This document shows, piece by piece, positions 9,901-47,725 of a stretch of 64,000 bases of DNA; the stretch's first letter is position 1, and each line of letters opens with the position of its first letter. The DNA is from Bilabrum cf. latius. Lineage: Eukaryota. The notes under the pieces are model-generated. The model made no database searches and had not been told where the DNA came from. It saw nothing but the letters and a program-made list of their open reading frames with translations. The translations under genes and the position numbers were made by a program. Location of the stretch: positions 1,364,001 through 1,428,000 of the forward strand of contig OZ237735.1 in the NCBI GenBank assembly GCA_965178125.1. Reading direction: 5' to 3'.

Positions 9901-11904
9901 CAGCGTGACTTGCACTCCATCGCCGTTTCCCTCCCCACCGTGAACCACAAGCGAACCCTGCTGGTCCTGGGCGTGGCCCCACGCGGCCCTGCCCATGCTG
10001 GGCTCTCGCACGGAGCCCGCGCGCCTTGTCCCGGTTGCCCCGAACGAAGCCTCGATCGTAGCTGGGCCGCTCCGCTGGTCTCCAGCCCTGCTTGGGTGCG
10101 TGAATGCGTCCCGCGATACGCGAAGGAACAGGTTGGCACCCGGAAGCGGGCCAGCATCACCATCCTCCTCGTCCATTCCAGCCGCCCAGTAGCCGTCATT
10201 GCTTCCAGAGTCCACTCTCTGTCGGCCGATGCCCATCCCTCTGCCGCTAGGCTGGGCCTGTTGCATGGACGCTGGATCGGCACCCCTGGCCGCCTTGGTC
10301 CCGCTCAGTAGGTCATCGATCCCGTCCATCATTGCAGTAGCCTGCGCCATGTCTCCGTCCTCCTCGTCGCTGCCCTCGTCCAGCCCAAAATCACCCATGC
10401 GGCCGGACCCAGCCCTCCTCAGCCCGCCAAACCCGCTCGCGTTGGTTCCCCCGCCGGCGGCACCGCCGAGAGCCTTACCTTCCATGAGACCCTCCACCAC
10501 CCGCAAAGAGGGGCGGCGCGGCCGGTCCACTTCGTCCCCCCTCGCGCTGGGGCTCCCTGGGCGACCCACCACGCCATCTCGGGGACGGGTGGCCGTGAAA
10601 CCGCCAACTCCGACGCTGCGCCTGGCCCACTGCAGCAGGTCGCGGCCTTCGATCACCAGCCCGTCAGCGGCATCTGCCGATATCTCGTGCGGCCTGAGTT
10701 TTTTGATCCGATCCTCCAGCTGCCTGCGCTTCCTGCGCATGGCGGGCGCGTCCCTCCACGACTTGCCGTACGCGCTCTTGCCCACTGCTTCCGTCGAGGT
10801 AGTGGTGTGGGTGTGCACGGAACCCTCCGTGACGTGCACCCGCCTGCCTCCCGTGGCTCGCGCCGGGCGGCGCACCGTCTCTGCCACGGGTTTCGGCTTG
10901 GTCTTGATGGGCACGTACAGTGCGTTGAAGATGTTGCCGATCTGGATGAAGCGCTGGCCCCCACCTCGCAATGACATTTCCCAGCCGTCCGCGGACTTCT
11001 TCTCTTCGTCGGGAACCGCCTTGTCCAGCACATCGAGTTCCTCCTGGATTTCTCGCCACTCTTCGGATTTCGCCACGACGGTGGCCCCTTCCTCCCGCCC
11101 TACCTTGGCCGCCATCTTGGCCCGCACCCTCTCCCAGTCGCGCTGCTGCTTCTCCCAGCGGGCGCGGGCCCGTTCCTCCCTGCCTGCCCGCACCCTCTCG
11201 TGGATTAAAAGACCCTGCCTGTGCTTATCCTTGCGCTTCTTTTCCTCCTGCTTCAGGTGCCGGCTAGTCTCGGCCAGCGAGTCTGCGGTGCGAGCTCGCA
11301 CGTGCCTCTGCCTCGCTGCTCGCTGCGGGCCGGGCGCGATTCCGACCTGGCGCGGCGGAAGCCCGCGGGAAGATTGTTGGCTGCTTTCCCTCGGCTGGCC
11401 CTGGTGCGCAGGTGCTTGGGCGCCGGCCATGCCCACGCCTTGCCGAGTGGAGGAGTGGATCGGCGGCAGCCTGCTCGCTGTGCCCGACGCAACAGCAGCA
11501 GAGTCAGGGCGCTGGGAAACGCCCAGCAAGTTGGAATCAGCGTTAAATGCCCCGCCCTGCTTGGCACGGACCGGCGATGATCCACCACTGGCTAATGGCG
11601 GGGCTACTGCGCGAGCCCTGCTAAGGTCGTCGCCGTCTTGCACCGGCCTTGCAACGAGTATCCTGCGCCTGGCCTAGGAGCCTCCTCGTGCTGCCAAATG
11701 TCCAGTATCTGTGAGGGCGAAGGCATACATTTTGAGGCATTGGCATGGACTTTCAATGACTGAACGATGGGTACCTCGGTTGTGCGTGTGCTCACAAGTA
11801 GTATTCCCCGGCTAATCGTTCACGGAAGCAATTGAGTCTTCAGACTCAAGCACAAATCGCCGACTTCCATGGCGGATAGCGGTAAGTCTACCTGGAGCGG
11901 CCAT
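3913..11904 (-). CDS. MYCBP-associated-protein-like (ciliary) N-terminal region fused to a degenerate phosphoglycerate kinase-like C-terminal region, ~2660 aa
   Basis: Ten ORF-track fragments lie in one frame, joined by about 16 TAGs; ends in TGA at 3913. MYCBPAP-like motifs: WEMSLRG..IGNIFNALY, LVNTGTRAVRLRW, GSVFPPGATKTFRF..PGVHTGAWEL. PGK-like motifs in order: VRGKTVVLRADLDLP, SLRPVAAAL, VVFLENL, VVVLGGG, V*LL..VADAIVLGG, PFDFVV, VDVG...LAWLGGTMGIAE..W.EGT. The start is uncertain and a 5' intron is possible. Confidence 0.75.
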
Positions 11905-12034
11905 GGGAGGCCGGCAAAGACTTCTGTCTGTCCGTTGCAACTTTGCGGAACTTAAAAATTGCGCAGCGCCGCCGGCACTTTGTTGTGTGCGCTTTGTAGC
12001 ACCTGCTGCAGTCCCGTATTTTGTCGGCCCTAGC

Positions 12035-13395
12035 ATGGACGCAAGCGCGAGAAAGAGGTAGGCAGAGCTGTTGCTGAAAGTATGTACAGGTGCTAGTAGC
12101 CTGAGCACCGGAGAATCTGTTGAGCTGCTGAGATTGCTTCGCAAAAGTGGTCAGTCTGCTCACCACAACCATTTAGTCGCTGATATTGGATCAAAGGTCC
12201 TCAGTGGTTCCTGGCTTGGCGATGAATGTGAGGAAATCATGAATAGTTGTGCAACTAGTCAGTTTTTGAGCGCGTGAAACAGCATGCGTTACTGTGAAGC
12301 GTCGGCGAAGCATGTCCCCCATGGCTTTCATCCGCAGCTCTTTCGCTTTGTGAGCAAGTTGGGCTTGCCTTGGTTCGATGCCACAGATTATTTGCAGCTA
12401 CAGAGCTTCTCACGAAGATCAAGGAGTATGTTCCCAAGAGTTAGCGATCGGAAAGACTAGCGGTCGCCGTTACCACTGCGGTGCCCACCCCGCACGGTAG
12501 GAAGCGTACAGGCGACATCCTCGCGCAGTCCATGAGCAAGCTGGATGCCAACGTGGCAGTCAGCAGACGATCGGTAGGGGCAGCCATGGTCGGCTGCGGC
12601 GTGCCGGAGGAGTTCAAGGAACTAATCGACGTGGACATGTCCCAGCTCCCGGAGGGTACGCCCCAGCCGTCCAGGACAAAAGTTAGGATGTGCAGCCCAG
12701 GCTAGGGCGGCAGCTCTGCATCCGCTACCAGGATTAGCCGCGGCCGCGAGGAAGGCCTCGAGTTCACCTCGGATTCGATCTGCTCCGCTGACGGCGCTTT
12801 GGCTCTCAAGCGGCACCTGCAGACATATGCCGACGATCAGGCGGCATGGAAGGTACTCGCCGAGATGCAGGCCTCACAGGGCAACTACAGGGAAGCGTGC
12901 TTCTGCTTCGAAGAGCTGGTGATGCTCTCACCAGGCACGGCGCACTATCACTGCCGCCTTGCAGAGTGCCTCGCCTCCACCGGCCTGCCCGCCGACCGCG
13001 AGGCAGCGAGGAGGCACGCATCGGTTGCGGTGGAGCAGTCCAGAGGGAGGCTGCCGAGGGCGCTGGTGCTGGTAGCTGCGCTGGGGCCTTCGAGGGTCGC
13101 GCCGGAGGACGAGGGGGAGAAGGAGAAGAAGGGGGGCGAGTCCGAGGCGGCATGCGAGCTCAGCATGGCTGCACTCGAGGCGCAGATCGAGGCAGTGGAG
13201 GCGAAGGCGAGGGGACACTCCTCGCCGGCTGCCAAGGGTGCCCTGGTCTGCGCACAGGCGCTTCGATTGGCGGTGGGCGCGTACTCTGGTGCAGCGTCCT
13301 CTGCCTCTGCAGCGGCGGCAGGAGGAGAGGCTGGAGCTGCTGGCTCGGGTACTGCGTCTGCTGCCGTCCCGGCGCATGATGTGGATGAGGACTGA
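12035..13395 (+). CDS. EMC2: ER membrane protein complex subunit 2 (TPR protein)
   Basis: Motifs LGDE..LCEQV and L..HLQTYADDQAAWKVLAE...ACFCFEELVMLSP..HYHCRLAE. Intron 12228-12337 restores the frame. TAGs at 12059, 12442 and 12703; ends in TGA. Confidence 0.8.
12228..12337 (+). other. Spliceosomal intron (GT-AG) in EMC2
   Basis: GTGAGG...CCGCAG, phase 1; joins WLGDE to SLSLCEQV in frame. Confidence 0.7.
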
Positions 13396-13569: not shown

Positions 13570-15385
13570 TCAGCGCCCTCTTCTCCTTCCACCTCCCATG
13601 CCTCCACCCATGGCTCCAAACAACTCGCGAAGCATCTCCGGACTCATGCCGCCCATCCCGCCCATGCCGCCCATGCCCCCGAACCCGCCGCCACCTCTGC
13701 TGAACCTGTGCCTCCCAGCGTCCTCCGCGTCCACGATATCGTCGTCATCCTCGGGCATGCCAGTCTCCACGTCTAGCCCAGAGTCATGCCTGCGCCGCTT
13801 GGTAGGGTCCTTAAGCACCTCGAATGCGTTGTTGATGTCCTGCATCCTCGTTGCTGCCTTCTTCTTGTCCTCCTCGGAGGCCCCCGCCCACCTGTCCGGG
13901 TGCCAGGTGCGGGCCTGCGCCCTGTACCCCTTGATGATCTGAGCCTTGCTGGCGCCCCTGGGCACGTCGAGGATCTTGTAGAAGTCCTTCTTGGAGGCCT
14001 TCTTCAGCGCGATCCTGGCTTTCTTGAGCTCTGCCTTCATCTTTGCCTTGGTCGCATCGTCCGAGGCCATCTCCTTGGCATAGTGGTAGTCCTGCACGGC
14101 CTGCTCCAGGTCCTCCTTCTCCCCCAGCTTGATCATGCACTCCGCGCGACGGGCGTGGCACTTGAACACCAGTGCCTTGAGGGATTCCTTCTCCTTCTCG
14201 TCCAGGGACAGCACCTGCCCGCAGTCGGCCGCGGCCGCCCTGTAGTCCTTGCCCTTGAGGTGCGCAGCCGCACGGTTGGCCAGCAGCCTCGATCGGTAGG
14301 ACAGCGAGTCTGGCTCCATCTCAATGGCCTCCGTGTAGGCCGCAACAGCCTTGCCGGAGTCCCCTGCCTTGAATGCGGCATTGCCCGCCTCCCGCTTGGT
14401 TTCGAAGGATCGGAGCAGCCTGAGCATGGTCCTCGCCCTGGTGTTGTCGGGGTCGTACCGCATCGCCATGGTGAGGTGGTTGATGGCCTGGCCCATGTTG
14501 CCGTCCTTGTACAGCAGCTTGGCGCGCAGCAGCAGCAGCCGCGGGGAGGTGGACAGGCCCCTGCGACTGAGCAGGTCCCTGCTCTGTGCGAGCGCCTTCT
14601 CCCGGTCTTCCGACTTGCCTGTCGAGCCCATGCATTCCAATTCCAAGAGATCCAGCTGGTCGTTCTTCTTGACTTCTTTCTTGACATCAGCAACGAGTCG
14701 CAGGGCTGTGGCGGCGTCGCCATCCTGCAGCTGCCTACGCGCGGTGTCCCACTTTCTCCGTGTGAGCTCAGCCTTCGATCGATCCGCTCGGACTGTGTCG
14801 TCCATGGGATCTGCAAGCAGCGCCTAGCTGTACATGTCAAGAGATTCACTTATTCTTCCCTGCGCGCACAAAATTGAATCAGAGTAAGAGATTGCAAGGT
14901 GTCACCGCCTATGTTCTTCTGGAGTGTAGTGGGGTGGGAATCGAGCATACACCTGCAAGCCTCCGCAGCTCGGCCTCGGAACCATCCCAGCCACAAAAGT
15001 GTCAAAAATGAATAGCACTACCGGATAGCTAGTCGCTTGTTTGGGGTTGTACCTGGGCCAGTCTCACAATTCGAAGCAAGCTCTTGGCACCTCGCAAGTA
15101 CGCCTTGACGAACTTGGGGTTCAATTCTGAAGCTTTCTTGCAATCCACGATAGCGTTTTCCCAATCAGATACCATCATCCGGGCAGCAGCTCGGTTCGTG
15201 TAACATGCAACCTAGTCGGGGTCTTTCGCGATCGCGGCCGTATAGGCCTTGATCGCTCCGGGGTAGTCCTTGCCCTTGTACAGTCTGTTGCCCTCTGAGC
15301 GGAGCTCCTACGCCTCTTTCTTAATGGCTTCAGCTGACGGCTCTTTGCTGGGCACATCAGCCGACGTGCTCCCGATAGCAGCCAT
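13570..15385 (-). CDS. DNAJC7: DnaJ subfamily C member 7-like co-chaperone (TPR repeats plus C-terminal J domain)
   Basis: TPR motifs (EGNRLYKGKDY..AI..Y..AI, NRAAA). J domain KDFYKILDV...WHPDR with HPD, then a GGM-rich tail. Intron 14860-15067. TAGs at 15308, 15212 and 14824; ends in TGA. Confidence 0.88.
14860..15067 (-). other. Spliceosomal intron in DNAJC7-like gene
   Basis: GTGAGA...GCGCAG on the minus strand, phase 0; joins KSLLRI to GRISESLDMY, completing a TPR. Confidence 0.7.
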
Positions 15386-15481
15386 TTTCGTACAAGAGTG
15401 GCCTGGTTCCATCGGCGAATTGTCCAGTGTAGTTTTGAGCGTCTAGATCCGATTTATTTGAATTGCAATTCACAAAGTACG

Positions 15482-18400
15482 ATGAGTGAAGGCACCAAGG
15501 GGGTCCTTGTGGCATGGACTCGAAAATTTATATCCGAAACCGGTCGGAAACCAACCAAGCACGACGTGGAAGCCGCCGGAATGCTGGAGATGCTAGTTGC
15601 AGTTGGACCGCGAAGTGCGCGGCCATCATCTGCTCCAAAACAGGACGGACGACAGAGTTCACTCGGCCCGGGTTCTTTCATTTCAAGTTAGTAGAAGACT
15701 AAGCAGCTGCGCGGTCGTGGAATCTCTCCGCTCGGTGGCACGCCTGGCAAATCATTGATGCATCGTGGAATCCTTGCCGGTCTCATTCGAAGGTAGCAGG
15801 AGCTCAGAGACAAATCGAACTCAGTATCGGTCTCAAACTAGGGATCAATTTTGGATAATCCCGCCAAGAAGGTCGCGCCTCCCTCGCTTCCGAAGCCATA
15901 GGTGATGCAGGATGCCAAGCTGGACGAACCATATAGTTCAAGCTCAGACGACGAAGCGCAAGCCGAGGCATCTTCGTCACCAGCAGCAAGGGTAGACGAA
16001 AACGACCGCTTCCCAGGCTTGAATCCGGGTTCAGCTCAGGCTACCTTGCAGGAGACCCGGGTTGCCCCTCGCGCCGGGGCCAAGTCGCAGGCTAGGCACA
16101 CAAAGGAGCACTCGAATGAGAACTACGTCAAGCTAGACCTGCGGGGGAAGCGCTGGCGCAGGCATCGATAGAAAGGAGTTATTTCAGCTAGGCGGGGAGG
16201 CTACCGATTCGCCCGATCGAACGGCAGGGGCCCGTGGCTGGGCTCGATCCCCAAGCTGGACGACAGGGCATCGCTGGCTGTGCAGGGGGGCAGCAAGCAG
16301 CTTGGGAATGAAGAGGGGGATGAAGAGGGCGAGGGCGAGGGGGATGCAGACCTGCTGCCAGAGGGATAGGACGGGTCTTCAATCGACATGAACGCCCAGG
16401 CACCTGCATCTACGCAATTTTCTGGTCCTGGGCCGTCCGCAGCCTCCTCCAGTGCTTCCTCGTCTGCGTCGTCTGCTGCAACCAGAGGCCGATCCAGTGC
16501 CGGCGCTCTGCCAGCCGCTCTCAATGACCCGGTGGCCGTGACTCCGGCATCTGAAGGATTCATTGGCGGGAGGAGCCGCGTGGCGTGGGCCCCTGAGCGA
16601 GTGCTGGCGCAGGCCTCGGCGCCCCCTTTCCCGAAGCTCGACATGGTGGATGTTGTGCTGGAGGGTGCCGGGCTGGACACGCCACCTTACCAGATAGACC
16701 GGTCAGTTGGGGGCGACGCACCGTCACTGTCGCAGAGCAGCAGCAGCAGCAGCAGCAGCAAAAGCATGGCTTACGATTCACAGCAGCAGTAGCAACCACG
16801 GACAGGAGCCGGCCAAGCCACGCCCCGTCTTCCCTTGGTGCAGCAGGCGCTGGAGGCCAGCAGAAAGCGGTCTCGGGCCCTTCGAGAGAGGGCCGAGCTC
16901 ATTGCCAGGCGAGGTGCAGCAAGAAAGTCTGCGTCCGCCGGCAGCAGCACGTTAGTACCGATGAGCTCTGGTGACCTGGCGGCGATCCGCAGGATGAGCG
17001 GCGTGAAGGAAGGCCAGGCCATCAGTCGAAGCGAGGACCCGTTTGCGGACGCAGCCATTGCGGCCGGTGGATCCGTCACAGTGAGTAAGGGGAACCAAGC
17101 CAAGGCTGTCCAGAGTGCCCCTCGAATTGCAGGCCTGCCACCCACTGGGCCGAATGGGTGCCCTATCTGCTACGGGCATCACCTGGAGGCAAAGCTTCGC
17201 ACAGTCAGCCGCAAGGGCAGGAACAAGGGTAGGAAATTCTACTGCTGCCCCTTACCCAGGGAAGAACAATGCAAATTCTTCCTTTGGGAAGACGAGCACG
17301 CGTGAGGTACTGCTTGTGGATGCATTGCTTGCCGCCACGCTCGAGACACTCTCTTTGCTCTGCCGCCCCAGTTGGACACACCCACGCGTACTGCCCTTCC
17401 TCTTTGTTTCTTACGCACACCACAGGTAGACAGCCATCCGATTGTATCGCCGTGCCGCTGACATGGCCCTTAAGAAAGACGACAAGAAGGAGGCCTACGA
17501 CTTGTACGTCGAGGTCTCCCGGCGCAAATGGATGACTCGCACGTCGGCGCAGCTTCGGCAGGAGGCAAAGAGGAGGGGTCTGCGAGCTGACCAGCTAGGC
17601 AAGCTCAAGGAGGCCTCGGACCATGACTCGAGCAGCAGCGATGACTCGGAATCCGAAACGGAGGAAAAGGAAGCAGACCTGTCCGCAAAGAAGGACGTCG
17701 TCCGTGCAGCAGCCAGCGCAAGAGCTTCACCACAGAGTGCGCCATCTCCGGCTGGACCACGCGGCAGCTTGAAGGCCTCGGGGCACCCGCAGGGCGAAGA
17801 CCAGGGCTCCAGCTCTGAATCCTCCTCTGCTTCGTCCTCTGGGAGCGACCTATCCAGCTCGGATGAGGAGGCCATCCGCGATCTGCTTCGAGGGAAGAAG
17901 CGAACCGCGGGCAGGACCCGGCTCAGGCGACGTGGGGCTGCTGGTACTAGTTGGGGTGCAAAGCGGCTGAGACAGCGAGTTGTCGGAGCCTCAGGAAGCC
18001 AGAGGGCAAGCAGTCAGAGCATGGATGATGAGTCAACAGACAGCGGCGGCTGGTCCCCCGACGAAGACGTGCCCCTGTCGTCGTTGATTCCAGGGGCAGG
18101 GAGCAAGACCAAGAAGAAATCCAGAGCTCGGCAGTCGGGAGCGACAAAGAAGCGGCGTGGACACGGCTTGAGCACACTTCGGAAGGCCGATCTGGTGCTG
18201 CTGCTGGCTCAGAGCGACGCCAAGTGGTCGGTGCGAGAGCGAGGTATCCTAAAGCAGTAGAACGGCGGCAGGATCGGGGCCCGCAAAGACGACCAACCTG
18301 ATTTCGAAGTGGAGACTGAGCTACCAGCTGCAAAGAAAGCGCGCAAGAGCAGCAACGGCAACGATTCAGGGAAGGCCGGAGAATCGAAGGGTGTTGCAAC

Positions 18401-21400
18401 CGCGGATGACGAGGACGGAGACCACCTGGCCAGCGTGCTTGGCGAGTGGCAGGACGAGCTTGAAGCCAGCGCGCGAGCACCAGAGACGGGAGATGTGGTG
18501 CTCGACACGCTCAGGAGAGAGCTGCGCTACGATGCGTTCCGCGGACAGTAGGAGTGGGTAGTGCGCAGGGTGCTGGCGGGACAGTCCACGCTGATGGTCG
18601 CACCGACGGGCAGCGGAAAGTCCCTGACCTACCAGCTGCCGGCCCTGCTGCTTCGCAGGAACCTGGGCACGAAGACCAAGGGCTCATCCCGAAAGACTCG
18701 CGCCGGCATCACGGTGGTAGTGTCCCCGCTGGTGTCTCTCATGGAGGACCAGATGGCCAAGCTGCCGCCACCGCTGTGCGGCGTGGCCCTGACAGGCAGG
18801 CAGCCAGCCAAGGCGATAGCGGAGACGCTGGCCAGCCTCCGAGACGGTGCGGTGCACGTCATGTTCGTGAGTCCAGAGAGGCTTCTGTCGCCCGCGTTTG
18901 CCAGGCTGATGCGCAGTGGGACAGCCGCACCGCACGTGTCGCTAGTATGCATCGATGAGGCCCACTGCGTGACGGAATGGGGCCACGACTTCAGGCCAGC
19001 GTACCTTAGGCTGCGGTCGGCGTGCACACACATCTTCGGCGATGCGCCCCTGCTCGCCCTCACGGCGACTGCCACGCCGACCGCCGTGTCCGGCGTGCAG
19101 TCCGTCCTCGGCATCCCTGGTGAGGGCGTGTGCCTCTCAGGCTGGCACCGGCCCAACCTGAGGCTGACTGCCTCCAGCGAGGAAGGCGACGCGAGGGCCC
19201 GGGCACTCGTTGACATGATGACGGACCCGGCGTCTCCACTGGGTCCTACGCGTCCGAGGCAGGTGCGCAGCGGCATGCCGAAATAGGCGGATCCAGCCAA
19301 AGGCCCGTGCGTCATCGTGTACACGTCAACGCAAAAAGAGGCAGAGATTGCAGCCGATCTGCTCAAGCAGTCTGGCGTCCCGGCTGCCGCTTACCACGCA
19401 GGCATGTCGGACAAAGCCAGAAATTCCACGCAGCAGCGATTCATGTTCGGCAGCCTGCGCGTGGTGTGCGCGACCGTTGCCTTTGGCATGGGGATTGACA
19501 AGTCGGACGTGCGAGGAGTGGTGCATATTGGAGCGCCCAGGTCGGTGGAAGACTACGTGCAGTAGGTGGGTAGGGCAGGCCGCGACGGGGCACCGTCGTT
19601 CTGCCACGCTTTCATCGGGACAGAGGAGCTGCTCTTGCACAGAGCCAGGACGGCAGGGGCGTCCGGTGGTGGCATCGTGTCGGGGCGGCAAGTGCTGGGT
19701 CTTGTGGCCGCGCTCGCTGGGGCGGCAGAGTACGCTGCGGACGCCGAGGCCAGCTCCGGGCTGTACCAGAGCGACACCGATGATGCTTCGGGTGACGGCG
19801 TTCCAAACCCGACGAGAGGTCGTGACGTGGCAGTGGATGTCTCCTGGTGCGGCGCCGCTCTGGACCTGAGGCCCGAAGCTGTGGACACGGTGCTGGCGTA
19901 CGCAGAGGACGAGGGCGTGGCTGTACATGCGCCATCCAGGCACGGTGTATGCGACGTGGCACTGCGTAGGACTTCTCCCTCCTTCGTCTTCAAGTCATCT
20001 GGAATCTTGAGGTCGGCGGTGTGCGGAAAGCCGCCCCGAGCAAAACAAGGAGCCGCTGCTGGCCGCACTCACGTGCTGATGGCGCGCTGGCAGGCCGCCG
20101 CCCTCCTCGCCCTTGTGCAGCTGGAGTGTATCCCCTACAATCCAGTGTCTGAAGCCTCGCTCACGTTCGGGCCCAGCGACGATGGCAAATCTGGCACGTT
20201 CGGGGCTGCCAGAAGAGCCCCAGCCGCATCCAAAGACGCGGCTGGGCTCGGTGCGGCTACCCAGGAGAACAGGGTGGCACAGGCGCTGCGCACCGAGGCA
20301 ACAGCATTGCTGCTGCAAGATGACGGCAGCGGTTGGACTCCCGAGCAACTGCTATTGCAGGCCATGCAGAGCGTCACGAGTAGGGTGTGGAGAAACGCGA
20401 GCGGCTGCTGGGTGGTGCGGGTGTTTTTGAGTGAGGCGATGGCGCTTGGCGGCATGAGGCTATCCGAGGTGCAGAGGTACTTGCTTCAGCTGCAGTCCAC
20501 GGGACAAGTGGACACCAGCTGGAGCGGATGGAGCATCGGGGTGCTGCTGCAGCACCCGAGCGCGTGGCGCAGCACCATGGAGAAGCGTGATCGCGAGCAG
20601 CAGCTGCCCCAGCACGAGGACCAGATGACTGCGGAGCAGTTCGACCTGCTCTGCCAAGAGACCGGGGAGCACGCCCCTGGGCCAGGAGCCAAGGCAAGCG
20701 CCGGGAGCAGCAAGACGTCTCCGTCGATGCAAGGAGTAATGGCACTTGCGAGGCGCATCTGGGGCAGGATCTCTGTGCTGAGCAACCGACGCGTCAGCAG
20801 GGTGGAGCTGGCCTGGGGTATGCTCCGCAGAGCCACTACAAACAACTGGAAGGAAGCAATGGGGATGACCCGGCCGCGAGCGGTGCCGGCCTCCTCAGCG
20901 TCTGCACCCACTGCCACTGCCACTGCCACAGCTGTTGGTGTTGGCAGCGAGGACGAGAGCATCGAGTGGAGCGATGGCGAGGACGAGGACCTCGGCAGCA
21001 TCATCGGGTCCAGCGACGAAGGTGAGGACGACGACGATGAAGACGAGGAAGCGCCTGAGAAACGCACCAGGAAAGTGCCAAAGACAACCCAGCCAGCCAG
21101 CAGGGAGCTGACCGCGGCAGAGCGACTGAGCGCCGCCCTCGATGCATATTTTGAAGGCAAATTCGACAGGGACGGCGCGAGCGAAGCGGCAAAGCGGCGC
21201 ATGGAGGCTCTCGTGCACGAGGCGCCTCTCAAAAAACTGCCACAGTAGGGAGCCAGGGGGATCAGTGGCAGCAGCGAGGCTACGGCGTTGCGCCGAGACG
21301 CCCTGCAGGTGCTGCAAGAGCTCAGGCAGGCAGCCTCCCACAGGGATTCGGGCATGCGCGCCGCCCTCGAGCAGAGCACCGCTCACAAAGTGCGTGCTGC

Positions 21401-22028
21401 GCAGGTCAAGATGGACACACTGGATGCGGGGATCCGCTTGCCCACACCAGGGAAAGCAGGCGAGGACAGGATGGTGCCCCAAGTGGCGTGCGAGCGGCTC
21501 CTGTCGTCGTTGCAGCTGCCCGTGGGGGCGCCTGCTTGTGGGGCGGTGGCTGATCGCTCCGGCATTGCGGCTGCCACCGCTACAGCCAATGTGGCTGCTG
21601 CAACCGCCACTGCAGTGGCGTCGGGAGAGGCTGCTCCCGGGTCCCTTCTAGCTGCGGGTCTGGCTCGAGCCATTGGGGCGTGGACAGCTGCAGGCCGTGC
21701 CATGCCTCGTCCTCGCGGGATGTCAACGTCTGGGCTGCTCTCGTTCTGCCTCTGCGCCACGGCTTCGCCGCAGGCCGTGGCTCGCGTCATGCAGGGGGTT
21801 CCGTCCGTGTTGTTCCCTGCGAGGGAGTGGGGGGGTCATCTGCACTGGGCCAGGGCGAGAGAGTATCGGTTTGAGGAGGTGGCGGGGCTGGGGGCGGAGG
21901 CAGAGGCCAGGCTGGATGAAGGCAGAGTGATGGATGAGCTAGGGATGCTGGAGGGCAATGAGGGGGGAGAGAGTTAGGGGGGGGAGAGTTCGGGGTCATC
22001 TTCATCGGCAGCGGGGTCTTCCTCTTGA
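15482..22028 (+). CDS. RECQL4: RecQ4-type DNA helicase (Sld2-like N-terminus, GRF zinc finger, RecQ helicase core)
   Basis: N-terminal W..KF...GRKPTK.DV and NENYVKLDLR. GRF finger CYGH...VSRKGRNKGRKFYCC....QCKFFLWED. Helicase motifs FRGQ*E, APTGSGKSLTYQLP, IDEAHCVTEWGHDFRPAY, TATA, ATVAFGMGIDK, YVQ*VGRAGRDG. About 15 in-frame TAGs; intron 17302-17425; ends in TGA at 22026-22028. Confidence 0.9.
16736..16759 (+). repeat. (AGC)n trinucleotide microsatellite encoding poly-Ser within RECQL4
   Basis: About 8 tandem AGC units, seen directly. Confidence 0.8.
17302..17425 (+). other. Spliceosomal intron in RECQL4
   Basis: GTGAGG...pyrimidine tract...CCACAG, phase 2; removes an in-frame TGA and shifts into the helicase frame. 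Confidence 0.75.
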
Positions 22029-22217: not shown

Positions 22218-23252
22218 TCACGCCTGCATGAGCCCCATGTCCTGGAGGCGCTTCTTGAGGACGGCCTTGTCAGCCGCCGGCATGGCCACAGAGGGCAGCC
22301 TGGGGGGGCCCAGCTCGATCCCGGAGATGAGGGTGCCGATCTCCTTGCCCACGTCATAGTTGCCCCACTCGGGGTTCTGCAGGAGCTCGGCAACCAGTCG
22401 CCCGCAGAGCGCCTGGATGTCCCGTGCCTTGTCCAGGTCGCCCTTGTTGAAGGCATCGATGAGGTCGTTCATCTGCCTGCCGATGTAGTTGTAGGTGCTC
22501 CCCACGGCGCCCTTGATGCCCATGGCCAGGGCTCCGAGGAGGGCCTCGTCCCTGCCGAACACGAGGTCGTACTTGCCTCCCACAGCAAGGTGCGAGAGCT
22601 GCAGCTGGTTCAGGTTGTAGTCGGTGAACTTGATGCCCGCAAGGTTCTTGACCACGGGGCCGTCCTTGCCGGCCTCGTTGGCCGCGATCAGGTCGGTCAT
22701 CTTAAAGCCCGACTTGGTGGGACCTGCCAGCGACATTTGTGGGATGTGATAGTACCAACTGGGCAGTTGGACCGCGTCCATGACGTACTTGAGCTCGGCC
22801 AGCAGCTGGTCCACGGTCTGCGGACGGAAGTAAGAGCCTGGCATCTGCACAATGCCGGTAGCGCCGATCCGCTCGGCGTGCTCGGCCAAGGCACGCGCGC
22901 TCTGGAGAGCATCTGTGCCGACGTGGATGTATATCTTGAGGCCAAGTCCGGGGCCGTGCTTCATCCACTCCTCAGCAAGCAGCTGGCGCTCCTCCTGCGT
23001 CAATTTGACGCTTTCGCCTGTAGTCCCTGCCACGAGCACGTGCTTGACTCCCGTGTCTGCCAGCCACTTTGCCTGGGCCGCAACCGCGTCATAGTTGACT
23101 CGGCCAGGGTCTGTTGCGTTGAAGGCGGTGTATGCAGCCGCCATGAGACCTTCCATTCTTACAAATTGGAGGGAATCTGCCTGTGCTGCGGCCTGATTAG
23201 CGCACACGGCCGCCGTAAGGGCGCATATTGCTGAAATTACTGCAGCTCGCAT
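22218..23252 (-). CDS. N-acetylneuraminate lyase / DHDPS-family aldolase with a predicted signal peptide
   Basis: Motifs GTTGES, YYHIP, GIKFTD (Schiff-base Lys), FGRDE, GAVGSTYN. Hydrophobic N-terminus MRAAVISAICALTAAVCANQAAA. No internal TAG; ends in TGA. Confidence 0.85.
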   Translation of the reverse strand: MRAAVISAICALTAAVCANQAAAQADSLQFVRMEGLMAAAYTAFNATDPGRVNYDAVAAQAKWLADTGVKHVLVAGTTGESVKLTQEERQLLAEEWMKHGPGLGLKIYIHVGTDALQSARALAEHAERIGATGIVQMPGSYFRPQTVDQLLAELKYVMDAVQLPSWYYHIPQMSLAGPTKSGFKMTDLIAANEAGKDGPVVKNLAGIKFTDYNLNQLQLSHLAVGGKYDLVFGRDEALLGALAMGIKGAVGSTYNYIGRQMNDLIDAFNKGDLDKARDIQALCGRLVAELLQNPEWGNYDVGKEIGTLISGIELGPPRLPSVAMPAADKAVLKKRLQDMGLMQA

Positions 23253-23450
23253 TGCTTTGTCAAACTTCTTAAGTTTCGAACCTGCCTGTGGCATCGGACT
23301 CCGACACGGATCCTCGTCGATATCCAATAATCAGATTAGTCGCAGAAGTACACGTAATGTTTAGCGACATGCCATAGGTGAAGATGAAGAGAGTCGCCAA
23401 ACTCCGATGAAAGTATTGTTTACTCAAGTGGCATTCATTGCTTTTGCGAC

Positions 23451-26400
23451 ATGGCGACTGTACAGACAGCGCTACTGTCAGAAGCGCTATTGCACCATTC
23501 CAAGTGCCGGCTAGATCTGAAGAGTTCACTTGAATTGCGCGATGAGCGCTCCACGACCGCGTGGTCGGTACTTCAGAAAGCCATGACGAGCCGTGATCCC
23601 ACCGCAGGAGTTGCATGGATTAAACGACTTCGCGACAGTCTCGGCATGAATCAAGGTGAACTTGCTTGTGGATATTTTGCGGTATTGCCTGCTATCATTC
23701 TAAGGTTCATGTGCCGTTTTGATTGTCTCCAACAGTATCATCCGTCGCAGAAATTGACCGAAGTTGGTGTTGTGGAGCGTGTGGAAGAACATGCGGGCTA
23801 CGAATAACTGGTCTTGTGCTGCTGATCATCGCTGCATTTGTTGTGAACCGAGATCAGACTCCTCTGGTGATCTTCACGACAGACCATGCATCCGCGGTTG
23901 GTAGAGCCCCGGAAGACGCCCCCACTTGGGACCTTAGGAGAAGGTGGATAGATTTTACCGGTTCAGCGTTTGTGCTTGTATTGTGCTTATTTCTGGCTGT
24001 TCAAACGGCTTCGCTGGAGACTTCATGGGGAGTCTCACGAGGACTATCCCGAGACAGGTGCCACCGCTTAGGTTGTTGCGCTGCTTGTTCGGGTACAGAG
24101 GGGTCTACACCAATGTTCACGTGCTGTCAAACTAAAGCAAGCAGCAGCTTGCTTAGCATTGGCTGCCTGCCGCAACAATTGGGCGGCCCTTTCGTGTTAG
24201 TGGTCTGCCTGGGCTTCGGCATAGGGGTCGACCTCGTCAACGGATTCCCCGGCGCGGGGGTATACATTGTTGGGGTCTTAGGACCCGCCGTAGCCGTTGC
24301 GGCCACAGCAAGCAATCCACTCTCAGTGATTCTGACGTACGCAACATGCCTGGGCGCCTACATCGGGTGGGTCGTGCTGGACACCTGGCTCGTTGGCCTA
24401 TGGCCCCGCGTGCTGTCCCCCAGTGGGGGCAATCTCCCAGGGATCTTGCTCGCGCTGGTGGGGACTGCCGTCCCTGTGCTCGTGCTACCCGCGGTCATGT
24501 CGTACGCCGCGGCTTTGTCCACGCGGAACTCCCGCAAGCAGCTGCAGAGCGCACTGAAAGTTAGCCAGGCTGCGGGCCGCAGCTACACGGCCGTGGTGCA
24601 GCTGCTCCGATCGTTGATGCCACCCTTCGCGATGCAGTGCCTCACGAACGGCGTGCCCGCGTTTGAAACCGAGGCCTGCATCGTGGTGGTGCACATCGCA
24701 GTGCTGCCACGGTCCCTCCTCGCGCTGCAGAAGGTGGCTCACCGGGTCCAGACCGTGATGGGCACTACAATGATGGGATCTAGAGGTATCGCTGCCGAGG
24801 CTGCATCCTCAGTGGGCGGTGGGGCTCCCAGTGCAGAGAGGTCGGAGCGAAGCTTTGCTCCCACCATGGAAGGGAGTGACACATCGGGGGGCACCAGGTC
24901 AAGCGGAGGCGTTGGCAAAGGCGCTGCATCTTCGTCCCAGAGCAGGAAGGGCGAGAGACGGCACTGGAATTCGCGACAGGGCAGCAGCAGCTGGGGAATA
25001 GGGAGCTAGGGTGGTCCCAGTCTGGCAAGCAATGCAAGGGGGGGTACCAGTGACGGCAGCAGCGCCTCTGATGCCGGCTTACGTATCCGACGAGGTCGGT
25101 CGAGGCCATCCACGTCCTCTTCGATGGGCGTGGATGTGGCAGGCGGAGGGTTCAACCAAGAAGAGGGCGAAGCACTAGGTGACCATGATGTTGCGATTGA
25201 TGTTGATGGTGTTCGGAATGCTGAACCCGCAACCGGCGCCGCGAAGGCGAGCTTGCCTGGCGATCTCTTGCGACATTGGGAAGACAGTCAAGAGGCAGCA
25301 GATGCGCTAGCTAGAGCGATCTCGGCAGTAGATGGCATCGTCATGCCTAGGAACGGCGTGACCAAAGTGTCATGCGTCGGCAGCAATTGGACCGCAGCTG
25401 TGGGTATGGTGACTCCCACTGGTGCGATCGATTCAGTGCGGGCGAGCCAGCTTCGAATTCCAGCAAAGCGCAGGTCAAAACAGGCTTCAACCCGCTGGAG
25501 GAACGAGGGTTGGCGAGCCGAGAGAGATGCAGCTGGGGACGCGGAAGAACGACGCAAGGCATCAAATGGGCGAAGCAAGACCAGGGAGAGAACCGGCGAT
25601 AGCGGTGCCAGTCGTTAGGCCAGCCTGCGCAACGCCGCGATTGATAGAGAGGCAAGTAAGCCCTAGACCAGCTAGGTCCGTGCCCTAGCTCATGATGGCG
25701 CAGACGACCGGAATTCTGCACGGCATAGAGGGGCACCGGGAGTCTCTTCTGAGACTCGCGGGAGTAGCCCCGGTGGCCCTCAGCGTGGCAGCGATCACGG
25801 AGGTGCAGCTTTTCGGCTGGAGATGCCCGCGCAAACGGTGGCTCTTGCGATAGAAATGGGCGCAGGACTACAGACAGCAATCGCTAGCTTGGATGCTTGC
25901 GGGTACTTTGGGCGTGATGCAAGGGTAGAGGTGGGCGTGGGCATATCGGCCGGGTCAGCCTCAGTGGTTGGATTCCTGGGCTAGGACGTATCAGCGCACG
26001 CGTGGTCCGTGCTTGGAGATGCTCACGGAGAGGCCCGGCTGCTAGCGGAATAGATCCCCTACAGAGTACGCATTGCCAGCAGTGCCATCCGAATGCTCAA
26101 GGACCCGCTGCAGTGGAGGCAGAAAATCGTGCAGGAGCATCTGCGGCCTCGTGCCGATGCCCCCAGCGATGCTTCCCTCGGTTTCCTGCAAGCCGGCGTC
26201 CATTAGCAGGATCTAGCTCAGTTGAAGGCGTAGAGGAAAAAGTCCTCCGCGGGGGATCCGTCAGACAGCTCGGTTGCAACGGGTGCTGCCACCGCGTCGG
26301 CGACACCAAGCGCCTCATCGCGCATGGCACAGCGAGTAGCAGCGGCTCACAACAATAAGCCATCGCCAGATCTTGCGGCGTCGTTCACCCAGCAGGCGCA

Positions 26401-29400
26401 AGCGAGGAAAGAGGCTGAGATGGACCGTGCGGTAGCCATTGGCCTTCACAAGGCCAGCAAGGAGCTCGACGAGCTGAGCACGAGGAGACCTATGCCAACT
26501 CTAGGGAAAGCCACCGTTGCAGTTGCATCCGAATGGTAGCTGATCTTGCCGCCAGCAGCCCCAGTGGTGTTTCGTGCCAGTACCGCTGCCGGCTCAAAGG
26601 ATGTTTCGCGGGCAGCCAAGACTGGTACTCGGCTCACGACTGATCTCATGCTTTGCATGCCAACTCAAAAGCACAAGCCGCAGTCGACGAGTCAAACTGC
26701 CGATAGCAACCCAGTGGCCCTGCGGTACTCCACAGAAACGGCAGAAGACTCTGCATCAGATGGCGGCTTGTCCCCAAGAATTGCGGTGGGCACTTTGACG
26801 TCCCCTCGGACCAGTCACGCCCAACTGCCTGACGTCCAGCTGAGCGGAACACCCGAACAATCTGTGACAAGCGCAGCTAAAGTGCGTCCTGATCCGCTTG
26901 CGCGCGTATGTGATGTTATCTAGACATTTAGAGTGACGGCCACGAAAACAAGGAAGCGCCCGGCCTCTGGAAGAACCAGCGCGCACAGCGGAGGTAGACT
27001 TTTTTCCGCTGAATCCCAGGAAGGCAAGTCGGCGAGCAGGCAGGCCAAGCACGAAGGATCCGCGGTGGGTCAGCCAGAACCGGGCCTGACATCATCGTCT
27101 GGACTGCTGAGTAGCATGGTGGACGATGCAATTCGGCTTGCTGCAGTTCACTCCGAGTCGATCCAAGTTGGGCCAGACGGGCACTTATCAATCGATAGAA
27201 ATGATGAAGCTGCCGGATCCGCGACGTCCAATGCAAACCATGATGACGGAGAGATCGAAAGGGCGTCATCCAGCAGCGAGTCGGTGATTTCTATCACGAA
27301 AACACCAGCTGAGTCAGGAGTGCCTCCCGGCATGAGTCGCTCCGATATGCCGGCTGGTGCAGCCACCACAATGGATCGTGCGTGGGATGGGAGCGACAGT
27401 TCGGCTGGTAGGCTGGCCAAAGTTCTACATGTGTCGTCTGGGGTATCAGACAGCGTCTTGCTGTTATTTTAGCAGCACGTAGACGCTCAAGCGTATCCTT
27501 TGGTGGCGAAATAGGCAGCTGCAAGCCCATCAGTAGCTCCACCCACTCCGGTCAGTGCTGCAATCGACTCAGCGCATTCCGCTGGTTTCCCTGCCGAAAC
27601 CCCTCTACCGGGGATTCATAGACGGCCCAGCCATGCTCTCCCCGGGCGAGCACGTGGCGTTGGCTCGGTCTTGCCAACTTCAATGAGTCGCCATGGGAGC
27701 CACGCAAGCATGAACCCGAGAAGCGCAACGCACGGACCTAGAATCGCTGGAGCTGCGCACCCAGAGATGGTTGCTCAGATTTCTGCAGAGGGCCAGGCAC
27801 AGCTAGGCAACTTATCTGCTAGTAGTAGTACACCAGCGGCTGTCGAGCAGTCAGGCTTAGCCTCATGTTGCAGACCCTCGGGTATTCCTAAATTGCGCGC
27901 AAACCCAACCTTCTTGCATCTGGTCGTAGGAACTCCATGGTTACTTCTAGTTCTAATCATCATCGTGGTTGTGGAGTCGCTTTTGTCGTTTTGGAGGCGG
28001 TACGAATTTGCTCTTGCGGCTGGAGCCGATTCAATCTAGGCTGTTGAAGACACGCTCCAACCACTCATAGTCACCCTGATTGCATCGGGAACTTCGTTCG
28101 TTGGACTTGCTATCGTCTTCATACTGCCGCAGCTGAGCGTCTGGCTTGGCTGTTCCAGCCGTGCCGAGTACGTGCTTGACCTGTGCTGCGATTGCGATCA
28201 CTCTGACCGCTCGCATCATGGCTGGTTTACCCGACTCTTCGACATGTACGGGTTTTGCAACGGTGGTCGCGGCACCTGGCATTCATGGACTGTACTCTGG
28301 GCCAATGTGCTCGTGATTACTGCAATCCTCCTGACAAATGTGCTTTCTTTTGAGCTGAAGCTGCGAGACGATACCACTGGCTGTCTTTCAGTCCTTCTGC
28401 TCGATGGCATGTCCATCGTATGGATGTGCATATACTATCTTGAGCTGGTCATTGTGTGTTCTCCGGCACTGTGGGGCCACCAATTCGCTTCGCCGCCGGT
28501 GATTGCTGTTGCAGTTGCTATTTGCCACGGGTTCGCAATCATCAATGTACTTCTTAGGACTGACGTTGACCGTGCCGATGATTCGCGCCAGTGCCTCGAG
28601 ACAGCCTTTGCACCCTCCACAGGACGGACGCTGCGAGGACCACTGGCATTTCAGGCACTTCGTGTTGGTCTTCTTCCAGCCATTGCAGCCGTGTGGAGGT
28701 TTGCCACGTGGAGCGAGGTGCAGGGTATTGAAGAGAAGGCACTTCCGGCTCTGGAGCGGCTGCGTGAAGCAATTCTTGAAAAAGCGGGCACAGTGCAGGC
28801 AGCAGTTGACATGATGCTTCCAAGGCGATTGCTGGATCACTGGAATACGCAGCTTTAGACAATATCAGATGGGCTTGGCGGTTCCAAAAGCATACTTCGC
28901 TCACCATCCCAGCTGCTTCTGCTACCACGTAGGCACACCTAGGACAGGCTAGGGATATCTGTTGAGACTCCCACTATCGCCGTTCTGGCCGTGCATCTGA
29001 ATCATGTGAAGGACCTATTATCCCTCATCGGCCCTGTTGCATTGTTTCGCATCACTCGGGAGGTGTGTGCCGCCGTAGAGGGAGCGTGCATCAGGCGTAA
29101 AGGCCGTCGAGTTCGAGTGTCGCAGGAGGGCGTGCTAACTGCTTTCGGGCTTGACAATTGGACAGATCACCATGCTGATCACGATGTCTCCATGCAGCGG
29201 GCTTCAACCCGGAAAAGCTCGAACGGAGTTGAGGAAGCAATCGGGGACCCCAGGAGCAGGGCTTCCTCCGGAGCAGCCCGCCTGAGGGCAAATGACCCTC
29301 AGCTACTGGCTACGCGAGCGCTGTTATCCGCATCGGATGTATCTGCGGCACTCTTTCTCCTATCTCGTCGCCTCAAGGTTGAACTGTCTGTGTCATGCTC

Positions 29401-32400
29401 GCTGCATATTGGTCCGACGTAGCTAGTAGCGGCAGGCGGACATTAGGCCTGGGACCTGCACGGCAGCACCGTGGACGACTCGCTGGCAATTGCAGCGAGG
29501 GCTGCAATCGAGGTGCCTCGGCGTTCGGGCTCTGTCATCGTGTGCTCCAGCAGGGCGATGATGTCGCTCACTTCGGCCGAGCCTTCGTTCGAGGCAGTCT
29601 TTGCAGAACGGCTACCATCGTAGCCGGAGGGTCTCTCGAGCCGGGTACTGGCCGGAGTCTCCACTGCAAGCCAGGTACGCTTGACGTCTGGAGCGGGTTT
29701 TGCGCTGAGCACGGCAGCGCAGGGTGACGAGGCACGCACTCGGACCGGTTAGAGCCGGTCAGCGGAGGGAAGCGCTGGTACCCGCAACAACGCTGCTGAT
29801 TTTGATTCCGGGCGTTTTCTGCCGAAACGACAAACTCGCCGAACGGATGCTGCTGCTGCTTTGCATTGGTTTGGGTGGACCACGCACGCCCACGAGCAGC
29901 TGCTTCGGATCAGTTTACGGGTGTCTGGCATGCAAAATTCGGTGCATGGCAGCCTGCATCCCTCAGGAGGTGCACCACACGAAGATGCCACATCTAGGAA
30001 CAACAATCGAAGCAGAGGCAGGCATAGGATCCATTAGGACACCCTGACTGCCTTGTTGCAACTAGTCGGCGAATCCACATGTACCCGAATCGAATCTTGC
30101 GCAGATCGTCTTTCAAGGCAGCACCCCGACTCGAGCTCAGTGGGAGAACGGCTCGTTTAGACCCTTGCCTTAGTATTACAGGCTGTGCATTCGACTGAAG
30201 GAACCACGATGATATGTGTGCACGACGTGGATACAGAGGCCACCAGCTTATTCGTGAGTGACGAGTGCTGGTACTTGGCTCGATGCTCGCCCGAAGCGCT
30301 TGAAGGCAAGAGCGCATACAAGCTTTTGTTCAAAGACGACCTGGCGCGTGTGTCCGAGGCGCATGACGTCAACCTTGAATCAGATGAGGTCATAACTGCT
30401 GATGTACAGTACCGCGTTTTGGTGGGCTACACAACGCTTAGCGCGGTAGCCGCATGTGCTGGTGTCTCACTTGGTCATATCGCTGAGGACATTAGCAGGG
30501 AGTCTTCGGATGGAACAGCAGAGTCAAGCAATGCAGGCGGGACAAGTAGTCAGGCATATTCTGCCGATAATGGTACCAGGTCAGGTCTGCGCGCACGCAA
30601 TACCCAGCCTTTTCGCGAGATGCAAACGGCGAAGATCCCGTGGCACGGTCGAGATACAGCGATCCTCGGCACTGTGTGTCGCAGCGCCAGCCAGGCTTTG
30701 CCTGGCGAGTTGGTCAGACCACTTGCAGAGATCAAGTAGCTGCTGCAGGAATAGGAGACTAGTCAGGAGCACCTGCAATTTGAGCGAATGAAGGATCTGC
30801 CCGTGCCCGTTTGCCGATGGGTGTCAGCTCGCACCCTTCGTGATCGGGGTGGCAAGTTCCTCATTAGCATCTGGCGGCCGATGTTGGAGGACCAAGAAGA
30901 AATACAAGAGAGTCTTGGAGTACCTGCCTGGGACTACGTTACGATTCCGCAAAGTGAAACCATGCAGCCGTTGCCCGATGGCAAGAGTGCTGGCACCGAT
31001 GAGGTGCCGCCTGGGGGTGCTGGATCACCTAGTGCCATCGACCCGCTTAGCTGGAATCGCAAGGTGTCTGAGCTTCGAGAGAAGGCTCAAAGACTCTAGG
31101 CCAAGCCGTAGGTAGTTGCCCCCGCTACTCCACTGATTGCTGGCGGTGATGAGAATGACGACGCAATGCAAGTCTAGCAAGCCAAGGCTGATCTTCTCAG
31201 CATTCCCATATCCTTCGCTGAATTCAAGCTGCTGCGTCTGCTAGGAAAGGGGGCATTCGGCACTGTGTACCAGGCGTGCCACCTGCCCTCTGGCACCAGC
31301 ATGGCACTCAAGATCCTGAGGGCGAAGCGAGTGAGGAGGAGGCACCTGCGGGCAGAGCTCAACGTGCTCTCCCAGCTACCCGTCCACCCTTGCTTGCCTC
31401 GATTCTTCTGCTGTATCTCTAGCCAGAAACGTATTTTCATCGCTACTGAATACATCGATGGGCCAACTTTGAGCGACGTGGTGTAGAATCGTGGGCGCAT
31501 GTCAGAGGACGCGTTGAGGGTTCTCATTGCGTAGCTGGTTTGCGCGCTTCAGGAGCTGCACAGCAACGGCATTGTGCACAGAGACATTAAACCAGGTAAT
31601 GTGATGATCAGAGCATCCAACGGTCAGCCTGTACTCATTGATTTTGGATTATCCGAGGTCATGTATGGCGTGTCAGTTCCTGCGACAATGGGGTCCGACT
31701 TGGGACGGGACGAGGCTCGCCTGTCTAAACCATAGCCTGGTGCCTTAAGCGTTGCGGCTACATCATCTCTGGCAAAACAGGCGGCTTCAACGTCTGCTGT
31801 GTCGGTAAAGCCAAACTCGTCAGTGCGTTTTCTCCGGGAGTACAGGCATGAGCTTGAATCTGCCGGGCTCGTGCCGCTCCTGAAGCAGCTCTCGCCCTCC
31901 ATGAGCCTGCAGGCGTCATCTGCTCGAACCAGCATTTTCTCGATGGGACCTCTGGTCTTCGATGGCAGTGGAAATCCAAAGGAGGCGTGGAATGCGTTTC
32001 GAGACGTGGTGGCTGCAAGAGCTGGACATCGGGCCGCGGGACGGTTCGGACCGATGTGGGCGAAAGGGCAGAGCGCAGTCCAGCCGAGGGTCGCGTCGGT
32101 TCTTGTGTTTGATTCCAGGGATGACGAGTTTCTGGCGCAAGCCCGCATGAAAGCGCTGCAGATGCAGGCAAGGCGCACAGCGTTCCTTCGAGAAACCCGG
32201 AAGGGCGCCGCAGACCCTCTTGCCGAACCAGAGCCACCCGCTTCGCCGAGCGACGGATACCACTCGCTTGTAACCAGAATGAGGCTGCAAGGGTCTCTAT
32301 CCGAGTGCCCAGGGCCTGATGATATGCCCACACCCGAGCCAATCGGCGGAACAGTCGATGCAGCAAAGAAGCTGAAGCATGCGATCTACCAATGGAGGTC

Positions 32401-36344: not shown

Positions 36345-38031
<1,687 letters not shown>

Positions 38032-47527: not shown

Positions 47528-47725
47528 AATTTGCCAATATTGTCGCCAATATTTCAATGCGCAATGAACGAATCGGCATCGAACCTGGACGAAGAACGGA
47601 ACCACCACACGGCGAATGCGCGGCGACCGCGGTGTCGGGTGATGAATCCGCATTCGGCACTAGCATATTCACATTGCGTTTCGCTGGCGATACTACCATC
47701 CATTATTGTAATGAGCTAAGCAGGT

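Follow-up and report, generated by a model that had tools for sequence, protein, structure and literature searches.

An in-frame TAG at the motif-0 glutamine of a RecQ4-type helicase points to UAG read as glutamine in a stramenopile-like protist

Among nuclear genetic codes that depart from the standard one, the reading of both UAA and UAG (UAR) as glutamine (NCBI table 6) is known from many ciliates, Ulvophyceae, Hexamita, Streblomastix and Amoeboaphelidium, and the meaning UAG = glutamine is the one carried by NCBI table 15. Partial accounts of Blastocrithidia nonstop describe a code in which UAR specifies glutamate and UGA tryptophan, all three stops being affected. Excerpts of PMC11687900 place the reassignment of UAG alone to glutamine in Iotanema spirale (a fornicate), Protocruzia tuzeti (a ciliate) and two phyllopharyngean ciliate lineages, give leucine, serine or glutamate for changes of UAG alone elsewhere, and give UAR = glutamine for several groups. 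Here we analyze a 64,000-nucleotide stretch of contig OZ237735.1 (assembly GCA_965178125.1, positions 1,364,001 to 1,428,000 of the forward strand, filed under Bilabrum cf. latius; hereafter the window, within which all positions are numbered), in which a TAG codon at 18549-18551 occupies the place of a near-invariant glutamine in motif 0 of a RecQ4-type helicase. The reading that we favor, and which the comparisons below make very probable, is that TAG encodes glutamine in the nuclear code of the host, that TGA and apparently TAA still act as stops, and that TAG 18549 supplies the motif-0 glutamine, with which restored the enzyme would be intact.

Excerpts of PMC1616949 give RecQ motif 0 as Lx3(F/Y/W)Gx3F(R/K)x2Q, with a terminal glutamine (Gln30) that hydrogen-bonds N6 and N7 of the ATP adenine; in BLM, its replacement by arginine causes Bloom's syndrome and leaves the protein with neither ATPase nor helicase function. 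The parts of the helicase gene referred to in the text are listed here, X1 to X7 denoting sequencing runs.

15482-17301, + strand: upstream exon, start placed at the first ATG (putative), GRF zinc finger (PF06839) at its end, 8 TAG
17302-17425, + strand: GT..AG intron of 124 nt, joint 17301 to 17426 present in an X5 contig, reading frame kept
17426-22028, + strand: second exon with the helicase and C-terminal part, 7 TAG (17427, 18258, 18549, 19284, 19563, 21246 and 21975), ending in TGA
18471-19907, + strand: helicase core, aligning to residues 37-505 of human RECQL4 (5lst)
18510-18551, + strand: RecQ motif 0, residues of the query sequence on the pattern of PMC1616949
18549-18551, + strand: TAG codon (residue X489 of the helicase frame) on the motif-0 glutamine position, from the sequence and homolog alignments
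18600-18623, + strand: motif I (Walker A), APTGSGKS, with TGSGKS at 18606-18623, from the sequence
18954-18965, + strand: motif II, DEAH, from the sequence
19563-19565, + strand: second alignable TAG of the gene, after the motif-VI glutamine (YVQ-TAG-VGRAGRDG), from a homolog column and an X5 contig
19569-19589, + strand: motif VI, GRAGRDG, from the sequence

An earlier note on this DNA had aligned the TAG, without gaps, to the invariant RecQ glutamine. The bases at 18549-18551 are indeed TAG, and the translation of 18525-18640 is as that note wrote it. A search of 5.8 billion proteins gave 7863 homologs at E <= 1e-20 among 8000 scored, and the best 120 were aligned. With MAFFT, the column of TAG 18549 held Q in 118 of these, H in one and a gap in one, and E, L and Y did not occur; one column earlier, at the CAG of the query, G stood in 104 of 120. 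A profile hidden Markov model built from the 120 homologs, with the query excluded, agreed with the gapless placement: F-R-G-Q-X-E-W falls on F-r-e-g-q-e-e, every residue in the top posterior class. In this profile the CAG lies on the Gly column and the X on the Gln column, rather than the CAG on the invariant glutamine and the TAG on a column that rejects glutamine. The closest relatives read FR(E/P/G)GQEW(A/V)I.RRV, against FRGQXEWVVRRV in the query, and pairwise BLAST against the 24 closest homologs paired X with Q in 17 of 23 rows. Of five printed alignments to Protein Data Bank (PDB) entries, four put X489 opposite the Gln of FRPGQE (RECQL4 5lst; RecQ 1oyw, 4tmu and 4q47). In the 1oyw alignment it corresponds to Gln30 of E. 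coli RecQ, the same motif-0 position, where the codon alone would differ (a reassigned stop instead of CAG/CAA). The query motif keeps the L, F and R of the pattern and its spacing, L-R replacing the aromatic-Gly pair; its last position is the TAG, and the pattern is satisfied there only if TAG means glutamine. The motif-0 placement of TAG 18549 is thus supported by sequence comparison. To call it the best single site, as the earlier note did, is fair, in that among six alignable TAG sites it is the sole column with more than 90% of one residue; the glutamine assignment rests better on this site together with the others and the ortholog comparison given below than on motif 0 alone.

A competing placement would make CAG 18546-18548 the motif-0 glutamine and move the TAG to the next, variable (L/E/K) column, which is uninformative for glutamine. 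Against homologs with FRPGQLE, a one-residue gap does give G on G, Q on Q, X opposite L and E on E; BLAST aligned P0024 and P0025 in this manner, and HMMER did something similar with human RECQ5, whose PDB alignment (FKTPLQE, one residue longer) sets X against Leu and treats the Gln as an insertion. Altogether X489 was paired with S, K, L, R, L or E in six of the 23 BLAST rows. These pairings count against the motif-0 assignment; the six deviant rows come from shifted local alignments or odd gene models. The shift itself requires two indels, a deletion offset by an insertion, both inside ten residues, whereas the profile alignment is gapless at top posterior; roughly a quarter of the 120 homologs have E (27) and then W (25) after the Gln, the closest Q-E-W matching X-E-W, and the spacing F-R-x-x-Q is satisfied only with X as glutamine. 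We consider a shifted alignment extremely unlikely.

The gene in which this codon stands is broken by a standard-type code (table 11), which splits the helicase frame into pieces of 276, 244, 560 and 242 amino acids. Reading TAG through gives a single frame of 1647 codons (17085-22028), which has seven TAG, lacks TAA and TGA inside and closes with TGA; from the combined TAA and TGA rate in the genes' own non-coding frames, the probability of 1647 codons without either is about 4e-14. Splicing in the X5 contig joins the upstream frame 15338-17301 in frame to the helicase frame, giving a product of 2188 residues with 15 TAG that is collinear across both halves with the closest homolog, P0002, and the GRF zinc finger is also found in most of the closest RecQ4 homologs. 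The spliced joint, the collinearity and the shared finger therefore identify one RecQ4-type gene. TAG 17427-17429, the first complete codon downstream of the acceptor, lies inside it. Read with the standard code, the locus would instead appear to hold one gene for a GRF-finger protein that stops at this TAG and another for the helicase.

A PDB search with the helicase frame returned human RECQL4 (5lst) as top match (E 7.6e-63, the alignment reaching query residue 941), followed by bacterial RecQ, RECQ5, BLM, WRN and RECQ1. Pfam matched DEAD and Helicase_C, NCBIfam TIGR00614 (recQ_fam) passed its cut-off (282.3 bits against 219.8, residues 476-850), and the bacterial equivalog TIGR01389 stayed below threshold (290 bits against 640), as expected for a eukaryotic paralog. 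RecQ motifs I (GxGKS), II (DExH) and VI (QxxGRAGRDG) are all present. Pfam found no RQC or HRDC domain (PF16124, PF09382, PF00570) in the helicase frame and, at E <= 0.001, no Sld2-like N-terminal region in the N-terminal exon, where the GRF finger was the sole match; PF11719 is carried by some RecQ4 homologs. In a single-gene FastTree phylogeny the query groups with RecQ4-type sequences, and the gene is best classified as a RecQ4-subfamily helicase, nearer RECQL4 than RECQ1, BLM, WRN or RECQ5. Its core is 56-57% identical to P0002 and to P0004 of Cafeteria roenbergensis; the protein differs from human RECQL4 and the stramenopile RecQ4 homologs in its long low-complexity inserts, its 15 TAG codons and the L-R that replaces the aromatic-Gly pair of motif 0.

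The helicase gene shares its use of TAG with the rest of the window. Codons were counted from stop to stop in 16 long frames (20,139 codons, some 5' non-coding sequence included), which hold 122 in-frame TAG and not one internal TAA or TGA; 14 of the 16 end in TGA, one in TAA and one at the window edge. If TAA were read like TAG, about 36 internal TAA would be expected from the CAA/CAG ratio of 170/581, and their absence beside 122 TAG therefore indicates that TAG alone is a sense codon. Read as glutamine, TAG would make up about 14% of the glutamine codons. The sole frame ending in TAA, for a GT25-type glycosyltransferase (41456-42799, + strand), has two TAG among its last seven codons.

Contigs of runs X5 and X7 contain four GT..AG joints in the 20 kb examined (17302-17425, 23654-23748, 36016-36343 and 36631-36754), their depth is very uneven, and an X1 DNA contig is collinear with the window. 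From the spliced joints and the uneven depth we infer that X5 and X7 derive from RNA, no run being recorded as such. X5 contigs cover 17426-17849 and 19509-21745 with 0 differences from the window, and TAGs 17427, 19563 and 21246 therefore stand in transcripts and are not edited away; RNA editing was rejected at these three sites. At 18549 the X5 bin depth is 4.99, transcript cover being demonstrated for 17427, 19563 and 21246 only. The X1 contig (17000-26032, 0 differences) is possibly the window's own source and not independent of it, and runs X1-X7 are identical in sequence, with no strain variation at TAG sites.

The TAGs might instead be defects, that is, pseudogenes, assembly or sequencing errors, or unrecognised introns. 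The four GT..AG introns show that introns exist in this 20-kb stretch, and nothing specific speaks for such an account; it is opposed by the 122 TAG against 0 TAA or TGA inside 20,139 codons, by gapless alignments across TAGs, by their presence in RNA-derived contigs and by the same pattern in an independent relative (contigs L001 and L002, below). We give this explanation a practically negligible chance. Selenocysteine was set aside as it is coded by UGA and not TAG, and pyrrolysine-type recoding on the ground that 122 TAGs spread over nearly all long genes are unlike site-specific recoding.

The relative came to light through three short database proteins (P0243, P0244 and P0338) that are 82-91% identical to the kinase of a 4028-codon gene in the window and look like fragments cut by a standard-code gene caller. 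A search of metagenome contigs with one of the three did not recover the contig of P0338 itself; it recovered L001 (extent 1-1910) and L002 (1-2390), which overlap at 99.7% identity and are orthologous to window positions 29061-32526, at about 77% DNA identity in the kinase domain and about 50% protein identity overall. L003 (35% identity) was rejected as a relative, being an unrelated kinase. L001 contains seven and L002 four in-frame TAG, with no TAA or TGA in the coding frame and many of each in the other five frames; a second organism therefore shares the code. Clean ortholog sites, defined by TAG in one genome only and at least 9 of 12 flanking residues identical, number four.

29444-29446, + strand: TAG in the window, CAG in the relative (L002), flanks 10 of 12 identical
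31271-31273, + strand: CAG (Gln) in the window, TAG in the relative (L001/L002), flanks 12 of 12 identical
31484, + strand: TAG in the window, CAC (His) in the relative, flanks 9 of 12 identical
31532-31534, + strand: TAG in the window, CAG in the relative (L001/L002), flanks 9 of 12 identical; kinase-domain TAG of the 4028-codon gene, LIA-TAG-LV, also aligned to homologs

TAG and CAG thus exchange at three of the four sites, and at 29420 both genomes have TAG. The window gene itself (23723-35809, + strand, 37 TAG) has its kinase domain split by an insert of about 700 residues, with the N-lobe at residues 2502-2649 by Pfam and the C-lobe at about 3330-3420 by eye; transmembrane-like stretches were seen by eye near its N-terminus, and the 5' end of the gene carries intron 23654-23748. 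X1 and X5 also contain another contig, 12-18% different, over 31276-31644 and 33956-34069, probably a paralog or second haplotype of this gene from the same sample.

The remaining alignable sites bear on the amino acid. At TAG 19563 the homolog column holds E in 82, Q in 36 and a gap in 2 of 120, with Q in all nine closest homologs, Cafeteria included, and glutamine is the only residue accepted at both RecQ sites (18549 and 19563). Within the RecQ core, Q reaches at least 25% in 8 of 348 well-occupied columns; in six of these the query codon is CAG or CAA and in the remaining two it is TAG, and the chance that two random columns would both be so Q-rich is 4.6e-4. At kinase TAG 31532, CIPK23, CIPK24 and EGFR have Q, and MSK1 has E. 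In a search of 1.84 billion representatives Q is the plurality there (49 of 147 best matches), and it is the residue of the four closest relatives (91, 83, 59 and 40% identity). Two further sites lie in a GH2 glycosidase gene. The column of TAG 32-34 is mixed (K 40, E 37, R 16, Q 11); the other site is as follows.

677-679, - strand: TAG in the sugar-binding domain of the GH2 gene, HHL-TAG-GYTPF (position 235), from a homolog column

Summed over the six alignable sites, log2 odds (pseudocount of five) are +11.2 for Q, -3.7 for E, -10.4 for R, -10.6 for H, -19.4 for Y and -22.8 for L; given few sites and related homologs, these scores rank the candidates and do not measure probability. At three of the six sites Q dominates the column, is its plurality residue or is what the closest homologs carry.

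Glutamate, as for UAR in Blastocrithidia and UAG in one ciliate, is the runner-up in the summed odds, and E is found in 82 of 120 homologs at the motif-VI column, in 37 of 120 at GH2 column 450 and in MSK1 at the kinase site. Set against this, E is absent from motif 0 in all 120 homologs; at motif VI and the kinase site the closest homologs carry Q instead of E; where the context is conserved, the ortholog pairs TAG with CAG and never with GAG; and E lies 15 bits under Q in the summed odds. Glutamate is a very unlikely meaning for TAG.

TAGs outside the alignable positions contribute little to the assignment of glutamine. Those of the RecQ4 gene beyond the core (spliced positions 118-933, 1275 and 1929) lie in insertions or unconserved stretches with mixed partner residues. 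The ATG11-like gene (42883-47553) had no homolog at E <= 1e-5 and one chance PDB match (E 0.13), and its TAG, in a ubiquitin-like N-terminal stretch, was left out of the tabulation. The transportin-like gene (47720-51412) gave weak PDB matches; its TAGs, one beside a gap and one opposite Phe in a stretch weakly matched to human transportin-1, were likewise left out.

Several further observations tell against reading TAG as glutamine. The column of GH2 TAG 677-679 holds Y in 74 of 120 homologs and Q in 2, and by itself would favor tyrosine. Kinase TAG 31484 has histidine in the ortholog and a column of variable composition among homologs (R 35, A 19, K 16, E 13, S 9, Q 9). Where the flanking sequence is poorly conserved, TAG stands opposite a wide range of residues (among ortholog partners E, L, P, F, A, R, T, N, G, S and V), and such sites are uninformative. 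The evidence as a whole comes from six alignable sites and four clean ortholog pairs, with homologs that are not independent, and the counted frames were defined by reading TAG through, so that any TAG terminator would be missed. As to the GH2 column, its tyrosine belongs to a bacterial subfamily; the 16 closest, eukaryote-like proteins (P0122-P0137) have C, A or Q, and the top match, P0122 (40% identity), has Q at both GH2 TAG sites. The GH2 gene is beta-galactosidase-like (2-1381, - strand), with an N-terminal PAN/Apple domain, its best homolog P0122 is a protist transcriptome protein, and the closest GH2 subfamily departs from the bacterial one at the HP-Y-GY motif.

The distribution of TAG among genes is also uneven. 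Overall, its in-frame density is 6.1 per 1000 codons against 7.4-7.8 per 1000 in non-coding frames, and three genes with 1221 codons between them have no TAG against 7.4 expected.

22218-23330, - strand: DHDPS-family gene, 0 TAG
36637-38031, + strand: RuvB-like TIP49 gene, 0 TAG
51542-52696, - strand: MAP kinase (MAPK) gene, 0 TAG

Their G+C at third codon positions (0.77-0.83) is the highest in the window, and genes that are conserved and probably highly expressed seem to avoid TAG. In Blastocrithidia nonstop, in-frame stops are rarer in highly expressed genes. The RuvB-like Pfam match begins at profile position 63, the N-terminus lying in upstream exons, and introns 36016-36343 and 36631-36754, upstream of and within this gene, were seen in X5 and X7.

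A zero count of this kind, as if TAG were costly to read, would suit decoding without a dedicated tRNA, or ambiguously: near-cognate tRNAs would insert mostly glutamine with some tyrosine or lysine once eRF1 had lost UAG, or the codon would serve as sense within genes and as a stop close to the ends of mRNAs, the arrangement of Condylostoma or karyorelict ciliates. TAGs within 16 codons of the end in the RecQ4 gene (21975) and the GT25 gene (...X ANRHA X TAA), and the GH2 TAG on a Tyr-rich column, lean the same way. On the other side, a TAG on a catalytically essential glutamine and the exchange with CAG between orthologs need faithful insertion of glutamine, and the overall density given above shows no strong avoidance. 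We judge near-cognate or ambiguous decoding unlikely.

As a regular glutamine codon, by analogy with other reassigned codes, TAG would be decoded by a tRNA-Gln in which a single-base change has turned the CUG anticodon into CUA, and eRF1 would have lost recognition of UAG and kept that of UGA and UAA. CAG being the main glutamine codon, C-to-T transitions would then freely yield TAG. A tRNA scan and an Rfam search over the window each returned 0 matches, and no eRF1 gene is among those of the window.

The window has a G+C content of about 60%. Pfam families were found in 13 of 20 long frames submitted, all 13 typical of eukaryotes; they include RuvB-like TIP49, MAP kinase, ATG17/ATG11-like, DnaJ-TPR, giant WD40 proteins, the GH2 glycosidase and a MYCBP-associated protein fused to a phosphoglycerate kinase domain. 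The window is eukaryotic nuclear DNA of stramenopile-like character, and the host is probably a GC-rich, intron-poor protist, a stramenopile near bicosoecids. In a FastTree phylogeny built on the RecQ4 core, Cafeteria roenbergensis and one metagenomic protein together form the sister group of the query; next out are further unlabelled sequences, then a clade with the labyrinthulomycete Hondaea. As a single-gene tree with no support values, it offers a lead to a stramenopile placement and not a result. In the fusion gene, a 2745-codon frame (3913-12150, - strand), the MYCBP-associated-protein domain spans residues 329-503 and the C-terminal phosphoglycerate-kinase-like piece residues 2633-2706; its product may be a flagellar protein carrying a glycolytic-enzyme domain.

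A code with UAG as glutamine is of a kind already known; that a stramenopile-like lineage, one with an environmental relative, should have it comes as a moderate surprise. Our literature search, which did not extend to supplements and may have missed a recent description, the source runs dating from 2025, found no nuclear stop-codon reassignment for stramenopiles. We put forward only tentatively, at somewhat less than an even chance, that this is the first such case in stramenopiles, in which a bicosoecid-related lineage and at least one uncultured relative (L001/L002) would have uncoupled UAG from UAA, assigned it to glutamine and kept the codon from the most conserved genes, which are probably also those expressed most highly. 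If true, that exclusion may mean costly decoding or a regulatory use. Standard-code gene callers would fragment nearly every long gene of the host and its relatives, because of which annotation, phylogenomics and proteomics of the lineage need the correct table. Cases in which UAG alone has changed and UAA is still a stop are rare, and they put to the test the joint evolution of these two codons; a new supergroup-level lineage, GC-rich and with frequent CAG-to-TAG transitions, would add an independent origin for tRNA and eRF1 comparison. TAG 18549 in particular ties the assignment to a residue of known chemistry, through adenine recognition and the disease caused by Gln-to-Arg in BLM.

Compared with described codes, the window is closest to those of Iotanema, Protocruzia and the phyllopharyngean ciliates, at least as excerpted accounts present them: TAG alone would mean glutamine, TAA is set apart and TGA is a stop. 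Those codes belong to other lineages, whereas the window has about 60% G+C and its RecQ4 sequence is, among named relatives, nearest to that of Cafeteria. The UAR = glutamine codes, again from excerpts, assign the same amino acid and presumably arose in the same way, by mutation of a tRNA-Gln anticodon; unlike them, the window does not read TAA through, with none inside the 20,139 codons counted and one at the end of a gene. Blastocrithidia is likewise a flagellate with in-frame stop codons, and differs in the amino acid (glutamate), in the stops affected and in lineage.

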